Shown: one piece after another, positions 3,657-23,132 of the stretch
Numbering within the stretch: position 1 is the first letter of the stretch
Layout of the letters: every line of letters starts with the position of its first letter
Assembly: GCA_000004695.1 (NCBI GenBank)
Contig: CM000152.2
Span: 3,136,001 to 3,200,000 of the forward strand
Source of the DNA: Dictyostelium discoideum
Taxonomy: Eukaryota
DNA length: 64,000 nt
Direction of reading: 5' to 3'
Notes under the pieces: model-generated
Told to the model about the DNA's origin: nothing
What the model saw: the letters and a program-made list of their open reading frames with translations, nothing else
The model's database searches: none
Made by a program: the position numbers and the translations under genes

Positions 3657-5535
3657 TTAAGTTGTAATAGTTTTTAATAGTATACAACTTGTTTCTATTG
3701 ATGAATTTAAAATTGATAATTTCATTGATTTCGGCTCAAATAAATTTAAATCTAAAATATCACCAATTTTATTTTCTTCAATATTAATACAAGAATTATT
3801 ATTATTATTATTAATTTGGAATAATTGATCAATTAAATCTAAATTTAAATCACTATTTAAAAGTAATAATTTAATAATATCTTTAATTGATTTTTGTAAT
3901 GATTTTATAATTAAAACCTCTTTAATTAAATTTGTTGATAATGATGATGATGATGATGATGATGAATTTTGTTTATTTTTAATTAATTCATTTAATAAAT
4001 TAATTATTATAAATTCAAAATTTGAAGAAGAACCAACAAATTTAAAATCATCATCAATTATAATTGATCTAAATATTGTTAATAATGATTCTAAACCGAG
4101 TTTAGCCTCTTTTAGGAATTTTTTACTTGAGCCTTTCAATATAATAGTTTGAGTATCACTAAATTGACAACCCTCAAATAATTCATATGATTTTTTACCA
4201 ATTATAATTTGTTTATATTTTTTACAAGTTCCATAAAATGATGAATCTAATGATAGATTTTGTAAACTTGATTGAGTATTACCACCAATTGATTTTTTAA
4301 TAAATTCAAATTCATTTATATTATTAATTGAACCAATACAATTAATTTTATTATTATTATTTTGATTTTGGCTACTTATTTTAACAAATTCTTGAATTGC
4401 TAAATCACCAATTACTTTTTTATTTAATATTAAATTTATATTTAAATTGTAAATATTTTCCAATTGTTTTGAAATTAATGATTTCTCTGCATTTATAAAC
4501 TCTAAATAATCATTAACATTTGAAATTTCAATATTTGCAAACTCTTTTTGATGTTTTAATTCAATTTCATAATCTAATAATAATATTTTAGGATTTTCAA
4601 TTACTTTAATTAATTTATCTCTACCTGCAAATGAAAATTTAGATTTTATTAAAATTCCATTTAATAATTTAATTTCAATTTCATCATTATCATCATCATC
4701 TTCCTCTTCTTTTTTTTCATCTTCATCTTCATTATTATTATTATGATCTTCATTACTTGAAATTATAGTTTTAATTTTAATTTTATTTTTATCTAAATTG
4801 GGTAAAATTTTAATTAACTTTTTAAAAATTTTAGAAATTCTTTTAAAATAAATTGATAATATATTTTTTGATAAATTGGTTTTTATAATTGATTCTAATA
4901 ATTGATCATTTTTACCACCACTACTACTAAATATTTCATCTTTTAAATTTATAATAAATCTTTCATTAAAATTATTTTTAATAAATAATCTGCATTCTTG
5001 AAATATATTTAATATTTGATTTATTGAAAATGTTGATGTTGATGAAGATGATGAACCTTTATTATTAATTAATTTTATTGATCTTTTTAATATATTATTT
5101 GTTAATATTATATATTGTGAAACACCACACCCAAATCTATTTTTTATATAATTTGATTGTTGTAATATAATTTTATAATATGGTGAATCATTATTTAATG
5201 ATTTAAATATCAATAGCCCATCTTTTTTTTTTTTTAAAAAAAAAAAATAAAATTTTAAAATTAATATGTTAATGATTTAAAGATTAAAAATAAAAAAATT
5301 AAATAAAAATAATAAAATATAGTAAAGAAAAAAAAAAAAAAAATCTATATTAAATAAACTTACCATTTGTAAATATAATTTTTTGTGTGGAATTAACAAC
5401 ATTATCATTCTCACCCTCATCATTTTTATGATCAAAAACTTGTGATATTAATTTTAATTTACCATGAATTCCAAAACTTGATTCTATAAGTTTCGCAATA
5501 TTATCAATTATTTTAAATTCTTGATAATTATTCAT
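3657..5535 (-). CDS. Divergent, Asn-rich TCP-1/cpn60 chaperonin-family-like protein. Exons: 5535..5364 and 5221..3657.
   Basis: Exon 1 reads MNNYQEFKIIDNIAKLIESSFGIHGKLKLI...TNG and ends before a GTAAGTTTATTT donor (phase 1). The acceptor aaaaaag|AT completes the codon GAT, and the frame continues DGLLIFKSLNN... in the 518-aa ORF. The motifs AKLIESSFGIHGKLKLI, ILLLDYEIELK...ISNVNDYLEFINAEKSLISKQLENI and ILKGSSKKFLKEAKLGLESLLTIFRSII resemble the CCT equatorial and intermediate domain motifs LGPKGMDKM, LLEGSLEYKKGES and [20 protein letters not shown]. Confidence 0.45.
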
Positions 5536-7610: not shown

Positions 7611-7692
7611 GACATCGTAGCAAAGTGGTCTAATGCGTCTGACTAGAAATCAGATCCCTTCGGGGGCGCAGGTTCGAACCCTGCCGATGTCG
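7611..7692 (+). tRNA. tRNA-Ser(AGA), class II with a long variable arm.
   Basis: The sequence folds as a class II cloverleaf. Acceptor stem GACATCG pairs with CGATGTC, plus discriminator G. D-stem is 3 bp (GCA/TGC). Anticodon stem TCTGA/TCAGA carries loop CTAGAAA, giving anticodon AGA. Variable arm TCCCTTCGGGGGCG is 14 nt. T-arm is GCAGG TTCGAAC CCTGC. A box is AGTGGTCTAA. B box is GGTTCGAACCC. Confidence 0.85.
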
Positions 7693-20311: not shown

Positions 20312-20566
20312 ATGAATATAATTAGAACTACCCAAACATTAAATGCTCAATCAAAGCAATTGTTTAGGTCTTATTCATCACTTACACCATCACAACATCT
20401 TCCAAAGAAACTTAATTTCCCAATAAAAAACAAATTTCATCCAGTAGATTCTATTAAAGCAGTAAATAAAACACGTCATTCAATATTTAAAGCAAGAAAA
20501 TCATTAGATAGAGGTTTATTAAAAAAAGCAGAAGATTTGCTGTGTCATCTGTCAGAGATTTTATGA
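20312..20566 (+). CDS. 84-aa ORF with a mitochondrial presequence-like N terminus. It may be the 5' exon or exons of the downstream TPR gene, or a separate small gene.
   Basis: It starts at a true ATG at 20312. The N terminus MNIIRTTQTLNAQSKQLFRSYSS is basic and hydroxylated. It ends in TGA immediately before a GTAAGT at 20569, so simple splicing to the next exon requires a frame change or an internal donor such as GCA|GTAAAT at 20462. Confidence 0.25.
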   Translation: MNIIRTTQTLNAQSKQLFRSYSSLTPSQHLPKKLNFPIKNKFHPVDSIKAVNKTRHSIFKARKSLDRGLLKKAEDLLCHLSEIL

Positions 20567-20664
20567 AGTAAGTTTTATTATTATTATTTTTTAAAATTAA
20601 TTTAAATCATAAAACTAATTAATTTTATTATTATTTATTATTTTTTATTATTTATTATAAATAG

Positions 20665-21836
20665 AAAAATTGATTTAGCATCATCATTATATGCATATCC
20701 AACATATGCACTTGGATTAGTTTCATTAAAAAAAGGTTATTATTCGACTAGTGAAGATCTTTTAAGAGATTCTTTGAGAAGAAGTGAAGCAATCGATAAC
20801 ATTAGTAAAAATGTTAGAAAGAATATGATAGAGTCTACAAATGATTTAGGTTTAGCATTATTAAGACAAGGTGACTATGGAAAATCTTTTTCAAATTTCT
20901 CTAAAGCAGAAGAAATGGTCAAAGAAGAAATGCTTAACGATAATATTGATCTGTAATTATCTATATTAATTATTACTTTTAAAAATTTTAAAACACTAAT
21001 TTATTTAAACTTTTTTTTTTTTTTTTTACAGTTACTTTTTACTTCCAGCAATTTACTCAAATATTGGCGAATATTATAGAGAATTTCATTGTTATGATAC
21101 ATCGATTGAGTTTCATGCAAGAGCACATAATTGTTTATTAGCATTTCCAGAAGAACAATTAAATTTAGCAAGATGTCTCCTTAATAGAGGACAATTATAT
21201 AGAATATCCAATCAAATCGAGGTAGGCAAAGAGTTTTTAGATGCTGGTCAAAAGAAATTGATAAGTTATTTGAACTCTATAGACTCAAGACCAACACCAA
21301 ATCATATGGATTGGTCAAAATTTTTAATGGAGTATGGACATTATTATTTCAGTATAGGTAATATTGAAAAAGCTAGAAAAAAGTTTACCTCTGCAAAAGA
21401 TCATTTCATATCAATGGATAATTCAGAAACACCAGATGCAATTATAAACATGATCAATCTCGCCATCATTGAAAAAAATTTCCCAACCTTACCATCAGCT
21501 CAATCCGACACTTACATCTCTGAAATTTTAGCTTCCATTCAATCACCACTTCACAAATTAAAGAATCAAAGATTCAATTTAGATTCATATGAAATAGATT
21601 CAGCAATTCAAAGTTTAGTGAATGATCCAATTCAAACAACAACAACTACAACAACTACAACAACACCAAATCACAATAACAATACTAAAGCGGCATCCAA
21701 AAATACTAACATCACTTTTAAACCAGAAATCACTTTTAAACCAGAACCAAGTAAAGTGAAATTAGTTGAACCACTTGCATTCCAATTAATGTTTATTGAA
21801 TCTCAAACTCAACCAAGCTTCGGGTTAAAATATTAA
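20665..21836 (+). CDS. TPR-like repeat protein, 5' end unresolved. Exons: 20665..20952 and 21032..21836.
   Basis: The acceptor is aatag|A at 20663-64, with an incoming phase-2 codon. It encodes KIDLASSLYAYPTYALGLVSLKKGYYSTSEDLLRDSLRRSEAIDN...KSFSNFSKAEEMVKEEMLNDNIDL, then CT|GTAATT. The second acceptor is tttttacag|T at 21030-31. The gene continues LYFLLPAIYSNIGEYYREFHCYDTSIEFHARAHNCLLAFPEEQLNLARCLLNRGQLYRISNQIEVGKEFLDAGQKK...KFTSAKDHF. Helical repeats of about 34 aa with small and aromatic residues suggest TPR. A TTC19-like mitochondrial protein is possible but unverified. Confidence 0.5.
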
Positions 21837-21961
21837 TTTAATAAATTGTTTGATTGATTTATTATTTTGTATCATATTAAAAAAAAGATTCACTGTTTTT
21901 GTTTTTTTTTTTTTTTAATTTACAAATAATTGATTAAATTAGAATCTTAGATTTTTTTTTG

Positions 21962-22217
21962 AAACCTGAGTTCATTGAGAAGAAGTAGAAGAAGAGGGTA
22001 TCTACTACTTTAAAATGATTTAATTTTGGTAAGGCCAAATCTCTTTTCTTTTTTTTCTGGGAAATTTCATCTAAATTAAATTGGCTGCTACCAAAATCTA
22101 AAATGTGTTTTAATAATACAATTATACAATACTTATTTAGATTTAAATACTCCAAAATAATTATTTTAAAGTAGTAGATACCCTCTTCTTCTACTTCTTC
22201 TCAATGAACTCAGGTTT
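21962..22217. mobile_element. MITE-like element of 256 bp: perfect 55-bp terminal inverted repeats (21962..22016 and 22163..22217) around a 146-bp spacer.
   Basis: The left arm AAACCTGAGTTCATTGAGAAGAAGTAGAAGAAGAGGGTATCTACTACTTTAAAAT is the exact reverse complement of the right arm. There is no coding capacity. It lies in an AT-rich intergenic region. Confidence 0.55.
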
Positions 22218-22658
22218 TTAACTTTGTTAACATTGTACACCAAAATTGAAAAGTAAAATTTATATTTCCCTAATAATTTTTAAATTATAAAGTTTGTGGT
22301 ATTTTTATTTTTATTAATTTTAAATAGGCCTCTTTTAAATTTAATTAACATTTAATTTAATTGAAATTAATATATTAATAAAAAACTCAATCTAATCCCA
22401 AAAAATTCATTTTAGGAATTAAACTTGTTTCAGCCATTAAACTATTTTTTTTTTTTTAAAATAGTTTATAATATAATTAATAAAAAATTATGATAAAAAT
22501 TAAGAAAATCTAATGAAAAAGAAAAAAATAAACCAGATAGTTAAAAACAATAATAAATTTATATCAATCAAATTTTTGTTGAATAATATTAAATATTTAA
22601 TATTTAATAAAATTTATTTTTTTAAAATTAAACTTGATTTTAAAAATGGATAGGTGGT

Positions 22659-23132
22659 TTAAAAAGAAACAGATAAAACATCCAAATTTGCAGGTTGAGT
22701 ACCTTCAAGAATGAAACCAAATGTAAAGGAAGCATGGGCATTGATTGATGGTTGGTATGATGGAAGAGTGAGAATACCGTTTGGTAAAAGGTTAACATTC
22801 CAGATTGAAGTATTTGAATGATCTCTTAATCTTAAAGTGTAATCAGTGGCAATGTAAATTTGTTTAATATTTGTATTTAAATTATTTGTGATTGTAATAT
22901 CATATTGAGTGAATCTTTTATTACCACGTGAACCATCTACCCAAGTACCAATTACCTTTGTTGATAATGAAACTTCATGACAATCATTAATTGGAATACA
23001 ATTACAAACACCATTATCAATTCTACAAACTTGACCATATTGACAACTATATGGGCCACATTGGTATGGGAAACTTGCTGAAGCAAATGCAATTGTTAAT
23101 AATAAACTTAATAAAATAAGGATTGATCTCAT
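22659..23132 (-). CDS. Secreted Cys-rich protein with a CBM49-like beta-sandwich domain, 157 aa. This is an inverted paralog of the three tandem genes at 58-62.5 kb.
   Basis: The protein has a signal peptide MRSILILLSLLLTIAFASA and a 6-Cys motif CGPYSCQYGQVCRIDNGVCNCIPINDC. It continues W..G....FTQYDITITNN.NTNIKQIYI....IWNV.LLPNG.LTLPSY, reminiscent of the Dictyostelium CBM49 cellulose-binding module. It is 95-97% identical to the ORFs at 58120, 60112 and 62023. Confidence 0.7.
   Translation of the reverse strand: MRSILILLSLLLTIAFASASFPYQCGPYSCQYGQVCRIDNGVCNCIPINDCHEVSLSTKVIGTWVDGSRGNKRFTQYDITITNNLNTNIKQIYIATDYTLRLRDHSNTSIWNVNLLPNGILTLPSYQPSINAHASFTFGFILEGTQPANLDVLSVSF

Follow-up and report, generated by a model that had tools for sequence, protein, structure and literature searches.

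The 256-bp element at positions 21962-22217 of a 64-kb stretch of Dictyostelium discoideum chromosome 3 (to be referred to as the window) consists of two perfectly complementary arms around a loop. It is probably a young, lineage-specific inverted duplication of the local non-coding spacer, produced most likely by a template switch during replication. One arm and much of the loop have collinear counterparts in related genomes, and the other arm is the reverse complement of sequence that is found nearby.

Structure of the inverted repeat

The left arm (21962-22016) is the exact reverse complement of the right arm (22163-22217) in the window sequence, with 55 of 55 positions matching. The perfect arms enclose a spacer of 146 nt (22017-22162). 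If one mismatch is accepted, the inverted repeat widens to 59 nt at 98% identity (21962-22020 and 22159-22217), with 138 nt between the arms. The only matches to the arm in the 64-kb window at up to 3 mismatches are the two arms themselves, and none is found in 100 shuffles. A scan of the 64 kb for inverted repeats of normal complexity within 5 kb finds no other long one; the next perfect one has arms of 20 nt.

Both strands are predicted to fold strongly. The RNA fold of positions 21940-22240 has an energy of -119.6 kcal/mol (z -14.8) for the plus strand and -113.4 kcal/mol (z -14.0) for the minus strand. The DNA fold of positions 21962-22217 has an energy of -73.2 kcal/mol (z -17.9).

The inverted repeat is a real feature of this genome. 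A second assembly (GCA_054883475.1, locus-tag prefix ACTFIT; to be referred to as L001) contains an identical 256-bp element and an identical 822-bp spacer between the neighbouring genes. Over 12.5 kb, L001 and the window are distinguished by 6 substitutions and 8 indels. The perfect 55-bp inverted arms described in the first-pass annotation of this DNA are thus confirmed. The same annotation described the sequence between the arms as AT-rich and devoid of ORFs. There is indeed no meaningful ORF in it, the sole one being a TTG-started ORF of 73 aa on the minus strand that crosses one of the arms. The description of the base composition has to be qualified, however. The G+C content is 32.7% in the arms and 22.6% in the spacer between them, compared to 13.8% in the remaining intergenic region, which makes the element less AT-rich than the DNA around it.

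Genomic setting

The element is located in the spacer between two convergent genes. The upstream neighbour, on the plus strand, is a TPR-like gene (20312-21836), recognized from its ORFs and called as a gene in L001 and in four of the related genomes described below (L003, L004, L006 and L010). It encodes a protein of 449 aa in L001, and its stop codon is positioned 125 nt before the hairpin. The 3′ flank of this gene (21837-21961) is conserved. It carries an AATAAA at 21840 and ends with a run of nine T residues followed by G (21952-21961), placed directly against the new arm. The first 124 nt past the stop codon have 94% identity to L004, and this similarity continues right up to the left arm. 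Over the proximal 70 nt, the identity to D. citrinum is 88%.

The downstream neighbour, on the minus strand (22659-23132), encodes a cellulose-binding domain (CBM49, Pfam PF09478). An exact protein look-up of the ORF identifies it as XP_641328 / EAL67349 of strain AX4. The stop codon of the CBM49 gene is 441 nt from the hairpin, and an AATAAA is present at 22613-22618. The element sits in the fast-evolving middle of the spacer, with the conserved 3′ flanks of both genes on either side.

A few other features of the window can be recorded here. At position 20536 the TPR-like gene reads GATTTGCTG, and L001 reads GATTTTGCTG, a difference of 1 nt. No clean 449-aa product can be obtained from the window, because exon 1 meets a TGA ahead of the GTAAGT donor. 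Either the reference is in error here or the frameshift is real. The window also contains three further CBM49 paralogues at positions 58117-62500, which form the staA/staB stalk-protein cluster and have DNA identities of 93-96% to the gene at 22659-23132. A tRNA-Ser(AGA) at positions 7611-7692 is the sole Rfam/ARAGORN match in the window.

Orthologous loci in related genomes

Orthologous loci were found through exact-sequence protein clusters in five other genomes. Two of these are labelled D. discoideum (L003, ACTFIW; and L004, ACTFIR), two are labelled D. cf. discoideum (L010, ACTFIY; and L009, ACTFIZ), and one is D. citrinum (L006). They share the gene order THH1-like, CBM49, spacer and TPR-like, followed by ATP11 where the fetched DNA extends far enough. 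The inverted repeat is absent from all five loci. Low-stringency blastn comparisons of the spacers are noisy in this AT-rich DNA, and they were superseded by stricter local alignments with shuffled controls. Homologue searches with the last TPR-like exon and with a THH1-like exon gave no match. Four other members of the CBM49 cluster (P0011, P0002, P0014 and P0013) belong to the paralogous staA/staB cluster rather than to the orthologous site, and they were used as background DNA only.

L003 and L004 each contain a single homologue of the arm. Of the 59 aligned columns 51 are identical, the differences being 5 substitutions and a 3-nt indel. In position and orientation this homologue corresponds to the right arm of the window (22163-22217), and the outer flanks of the two are also collinear. 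The homologue in L010 (L010:7800-7880) is more diverged and has a (GAA)n(GAT)n expansion inside it. This expansion indicates that the core of the arm is mutable, purine-rich, microsatellite-like spacer that is not under constraint.

Viewed in the orientation of the loci, the segments in L003, L004 and L010 have the order X-A-B-C-D-E-F-Y. Segment A is the single arm. Segment B, GATTTAATTTTGG(+18 nt)TAAGGCC, adjoins A in all three genomes. Segment F (TTAAATTAACATTTTCAAGTTAAC, 24 nt in the orientation of the loci) occupies the position of the new arm and is conserved among the three genomes, and Y corresponds to the conserved flank 3′ of the TPR-like gene. In the AX4 type, the order is X-A-C-(4 nt)-E-rc(B')-rc(A)-Y.

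The segments of the element can be assigned on this basis. The left arm (21962-22016) is a derived copy, the reverse complement of ancestral arm A. It is followed by B' (GATTTAATTTTGGTAAGGCC, 22017-22036), which was copied along with the arm and belongs to the same derived inverted block. The next 46 positions (22037-22082) are segment E of the loop, ancestral spacer in its original place, orthologous to 'AATTTAATTTAGATGAAATTTCC.CAGAAAAAAAGAAAA.AGAT' in L010 and L003. Four nucleotides of filler (22083-22086) mark the junction of a lineage-specific deletion, where roughly 190 nt that are present in L003, L004 and L010 (segment D) are missing. Segment C of the loop (22087-22162) is again ancestral spacer in place; it is collinear with L003 and L010, and its identity to L004 is roughly 83%. 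A itself, in its original position, forms the right arm (22163-22217), and L003 and L004 have single-copy homologues of it in the same place and orientation.

The reverse-complement origin of the new block is evident from direct alignment. The derived 77-nt block matches the relatives as its reverse complement at 61 of 71 positions in L003, 61 of 71 in L004 and 47 of 67 in L010. Its best forward matches cover 20-30 aligned positions (17-22 identities) and are located in unrelated places. B' adjoins only the new arm in the window, whereas the homologous B of the relatives has the opposite orientation and is located on the other side, beside A. B' is now part of the loop because its partner, the original B, has been lost. 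The boundary 22162|22163 is the junction of this deletion and falls between two AAAAT direct repeats. At the junction between the derived block and E only TTT is shared, a microhomology that carries no weight because the DNA is T-rich; the other end of the block is ambiguous.

Polarity and age of the duplication

Neighbour joining on 1300 gap-free columns of the THH1-like gene places AX4 as the sister of L003 and L004, with a divergence of 2.6%. L010 is located outside this group at 5.1-5.6%, followed by L009 and then by D. citrinum. The CBM49 tree has a different topology, which may be due to the short length of CBM49 or to gene conversion among its paralogues, and the AX4 state is still derived in it. 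Segments B, D and F are common to the sister lineage and the outgroup and are thus ancestral. With L010 (ACTFIY) as the outgroup, the right arm (22163-22217) is evidently the ancestral arm, and the left block (21962-22036) is evidently derived.

The arms have no differences from each other over 55 positions, while A differs from its L003/L004 orthologue by the 5 substitutions and the 3-nt indel over 59 columns. The duplication is therefore much younger than the split at 2.6%. The first-pass annotation had taken the perfect arms as the sign of a very recent event, and the comparison with the orthologue bears this out.

The divergence of the THH1-like gene from the AX4 type is 2.6% for ACTFIW and ACTFIR and 5.6-7.6% for ACTFIY and ACTFIZ. 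L001 differs from the window by only roughly 0.1% (14 sites over 12.5 kb), and therefore these four genomes probably represent distinct lineages.

Proposed origin by template switching

A template switch is the most likely origin of the element, because the derived block is the reverse complement of nearby parental sequence and has been written over a prior segment. Starting from the ancestral order X-A-B-C-D-E-F-Y (in the orientation of the loci), a reverse complement of A and B, roughly 75 nt in length, would have replaced the 24-nt segment F on the AX4-type branch. The resulting intermediate, X-A-B-C-D-E-rc(B)-rc(A)-Y, would have had a perfect stem after this one step. The original B (20 bases) would then have been deleted between the two AAAAT direct repeats, and roughly 190 nt (D) would also have been deleted from the loop. 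The perfect arms are limited to 55 nt because the junction of the B deletion (22162|22163) sets their inner end. The copy was made while B was still beside the old arm, since the new arm brought B' with it, and yet this sequence is now found only beside the new arm.

Three lineage-specific changes are clustered within roughly 250 bp: the gain of the inverted copy and the deletions of B and D. A single clean template switch leaves the losses of B and D unexplained, and therefore several events or one complex event are needed. We infer the molecular mechanism (a template switch as opposed to break-and-repair), as well as the order and the number of the events, from the comparison of the present-day sequences. 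A simple inversion with duplicated breakpoints is excluded, as C and E retain the ancestral orientation relative to both flanks.

Template-switch mutations are known to create perfect stems in one step, even where there is no pre-existing repeat (PMC10710096). The expansion of inverted repeats by template switching has also been described in yeast promoters (PMC13100816).

A separate inverted repeat was observed in D. citrinum (GCA_054859325.1, L005:6558-6654). It is perfect, with 36-nt arms and a 25-nt spacer, and is located in intergenic DNA downstream of a CBM49 paralogue in a CBM49 cluster of the staA/staB type. The other D. citrinum assembly (L008:7568-7693) matches the right arm and flank of this repeat at 90%, and the inverted match is just 86%. 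The repeat in L005 may be another lineage-specific inverted-repeat expansion.

Potential as a small-RNA locus

Judged from the sequence, the hairpin is most likely a neutral, very young by-product that amounts at most to a proto-small-RNA locus, as opposed to an established gene. A dedicated function at present is unlikely. A transcript across the region, from either strand, would nonetheless form a perfect duplex of 55-59 bp and would be a substrate for the Dictyostelium Dicers. The most plausible source of such a transcript would be read-through from the TPR-like gene, with its poly(A) signal roughly 120 nt upstream.

There is a small chance that the hairpin has the same origin but is already in use, as a new miRNA-like or hairpin-siRNA gene whose RNA is expressed and processed. 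The hairpin would then be transcribed by read-through or from a start at the T run and G, and DrnB or DrnA would dice the RNA into 21-nt products. The perfect stem of 55-59 bp, with roughly -120 kcal/mol on either strand, is consistent with this possibility. The folding energy of roughly -0.40 kcal/mol/nt (over 301 nt) is within the range given for miRNAs, below -0.2 kcal/mol/nt (PMC6161686). In D. discoideum, transcription of primary miRNAs begins at a G that follows T-rich sequence, and the T9+G that abuts the new arm resembles these start sites (PMC6161686). Precedents are available among the Amoebozoa as well. The dfi-mir-1190 locus of D. firmibasis is 256 nt in length and has a folding energy of -142.8 kcal/mol. 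Its duplex contains 0 unpaired bases, and the locus is represented by roughly 10^5 reads. A perfectly paired D. discoideum candidate, ddis_Cluster_1861, has 21-nt reads, and long hairpins with no mismatch were read by the authors of that study as newly evolved miRNAs (PMC11014262). In primates, hairpins produced by template switches have become miRNAs (PMC10710096).

Other observations argue against a processed locus, however. The T9G motif occurs 48 times in the 64-kb window and is therefore not a specific signal. An AATAAA is found near the stop codons of both neighbouring genes, and the sequence from which the arms derive is unconstrained spacer. The arms are also absent from the miRNA sequences in the supplements of Liao 2018 and Edelbroek 2024. 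For this comparison, probes of 8-10 nt were placed such that almost all 21-mers of both arms include one of them. The Liao 2018 supplement contains no arm probe, whether spelled with U or with T. In the Edelbroek 2024 supplement, where mature miRNAs are printed in U, all six U probes are absent, and the only match to the five T probes is a chance one in a PCR primer. Among the D. discoideum candidates compared from Table S3 of Edelbroek 2024, the loops have 41-102 nt, and none of these candidates has the loop of at least 138 nt that is needed here. In Table S4, the sole miRNA on chromosome 3 is ddi-mir-7097, which has a different sequence.

Searches of other kinds agree with these results. The 13-16-mers of the arms, searched in the full-text literature, are found in two unrelated papers only. 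There is no target in the window for the 21-mers of the arms at up to 3 mismatches. Rfam at the gathering threshold gives no match at the element, with the tRNA-Ser as the sole match in the window, and a relaxed scan of the spacer gives scores at the level of chance (15-21 bits, compared to thresholds of 37-170). A scan for promoters and terminators of the bacterial type, a method that is not apt for a eukaryote, finds nothing. The first-pass annotation had also suggested a long hairpin RNA locus. The hairpin potential in this suggestion is borne out by the RNA fold (roughly -120 kcal/mol), but the arm sequence is absent from both of the miRNA catalogues searched.

Alternative origins of the element

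In another scenario the inverted repeat would be old. Gene conversion between its arms would have maintained their identity in the AX4 lineage, and deletions would have degraded the repeat in the relatives. The first-pass annotation had named gene conversion as an alternative to a recent event, and we consider it very unlikely. It would be in line with two similarities in the relatives. Their segment F has a weak similarity to the A/B junction when the latter is reverse-complemented (roughly 15 of 17 positions, with two gaps), and in L003 and L004 the core of A pairs imperfectly with the downstream segment D. In L004, for example, the purine-rich core of A (L004:4893-4920) can be paired with D (TGGAATAACTCATTCTAATTCTT, 5052-5076), roughly 150 nt downstream, at roughly 20 of 25 positions; L003 has an equivalent. 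This pairing is weak (fold z of -0.6 to -1.8), and D is the segment that is deleted in the AX4-type sequence.

Neither similarity is clearly above the level of shuffled sequences. No significant inverted copy is found in the relatives, as their best reverse-complement scores are matched or beaten in 24 of 300 and 10 of 300 shuffles. One of the two best matches, that of L004, is located elsewhere in the spacer and spans C and D. Moreover, gene conversion needs a shared loss, or two independent losses, in the sister lineage and the outgroup, plus homogenisation in AX4 only. The conservation of F among L003, L004 and L010 is a further point against it. With the second arm absent from both the sister lineage and the outgroup, maintenance by gene conversion becomes unneeded.

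The first-pass annotation had favoured a MITE or another non-autonomous DNA transposon. The geometry of the element is that of a MITE or foldback element, inserted either recently or in an ancestor, with a unit of 256 bp, terminal inverted repeats of 55-59 nt and no real ORF. D. discoideum is also known to carry DNA transposons, some of which are a source of miRNAs (thug-S; PMC4894637). Such an insertion is nevertheless highly improbable at this site. The search for target-site duplications proposed in the first-pass annotation finds no direct repeats of 2-12 bp on the two sides of the element, whichever symmetric trimming of 0-6 bp is applied. A copy count, which it had proposed for the genome, finds no dispersed copies of the arm over the 64 kb of the window and 93 kb from related loci. 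An exact-match scan of metagenome contigs with the 36-nt core of the arm gives 0 matches.

Insertion of a transposon would bring both arms and the loop at once, and it is therefore disfavoured by relatives that hold one arm and the loop. In L003, L004 and L010, one arm and much of the loop are collinear with the flanks, and there is no empty site. The new arm carries 20 nt of neighbouring spacer (B') that is found beside the old arm in the relatives, which is unexpected for a transposon, and the outgroup marks the second arm as a local derived copy. The assignment as a MITE was abandoned for these reasons. This result is also a caution for the annotation of repeats, as perfect terminal inverted repeats are by themselves insufficient for the identification of a MITE.

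Finally, an assembly or cloning artefact (a fold-back chimera) can practically be dismissed: some types of library are known to yield inverted duplications, but L001 shares the 256 bp and the 822-bp spacer in full, although 14 other sites over 12.5 kb distinguish it from the window.

Significance

The local inverted duplication reconstructed here adds a further case to a known kind of event. It bears on the birth of small-RNA loci, as amoebozoan miRNAs turn over fast, and long, perfectly paired hairpins have been suggested to mark new ones (PMC11014262). For the origin of such hairpins in these very AT-rich genomes, this locus offers a before-and-after pair. The ancestral spacer, found in ACTFIW, ACTFIR and ACTFIY, represents the state before the event, and the derived hairpin in the AX4 type represents the state after it. 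One local inverted copy can turn anonymous spacer into a stem with the quality of a Dicer substrate.

The element may even be a small-RNA locus at 'age zero', although we hold this to be unlikely. In such a case, a template switch would have written a perfect stem of 55-75 bp into the termination zone of a gene, and this stem would be transcribed, by read-through or from the T-run+G start at its base, and already diced into 21-nt RNAs. It would then be the first amoebozoan hairpin RNA whose birth is traced base by base, and sequenced relatives would display both the ancestral and the derived state. If the hairpin is silent, the locus represents a well-documented neutral structural mutation.

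Comparison with known systems

The element shares with MITEs and with the DNA transposons of the thug-S type in D. discoideum its small size, its inverted termini and the lack of an ORF. It differs from them in having no target-site duplication and in being single-copy in the DNA searched (64 kb and 93 kb). In addition, one of its arms is ancestral and in the original place, and neighbouring spacer was copied together with the other arm.

Inverted duplication is also the starting point of a class of small-RNA genes. In the model of Allen et al. 2004, young plant MIRNA genes are said to be formed by inverted duplication, with arms that copy the future target gene. Hairpin-siRNA loci in animals are likewise formed by inverted duplication. 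As at these loci, an inverted duplication has produced here a long, perfect fold-back that could be processed by Dicer, and the perfection of the arms marks its youth. There is one clear difference from the plant model, however. The arms of the present element copy anonymous local spacer rather than a target gene, and as a result there is no built-in target in trans.

The closest small-RNA counterparts are dfi-mir-1190 of D. firmibasis and ppo-mir-1226 of Physarum, long hairpins of more than 200 nt with no or one mismatch that have been interpreted as newly evolved miRNAs (PMC11014262). The two loci differ from the element in having abundant and precise small-RNA reads, whereas the locus here is known from its sequence and is absent from the D. 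discoideum lists. The sequence of dfi-mir-1190 (UGAGGACAUUUGAUAAUUUUGA, on D. firmibasis chromosome 1) is unrelated as well. The similarities are in the architecture and the distribution. Both the element and this comparison group include a group-4 dictyostelid locus of roughly 256 nt, with a perfect duplex, a large loop and a very negative folding energy, and there is no homologue of the hairpin in close relatives.

The element can also be compared to the template-switch mutations described by Monttinen, Frilander and Loytynoja in 2023 (PMC10710096) and to the inverted-repeat expansions in yeast promoters (PMC13100816). The block in the present element is larger than usual (roughly 75 nt, with its source 150-350 nt away), two further deletions are present, and the mechanism is deduced from comparative anatomy. 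In the other respects the element resembles these mutations. The descendant carries, in place of an earlier segment, a stretch that is the reverse complement of ancestral sequence nearby, the stem is perfect from the start, and the change is found in one lineage, in non-coding DNA that had no significant prior repeat.
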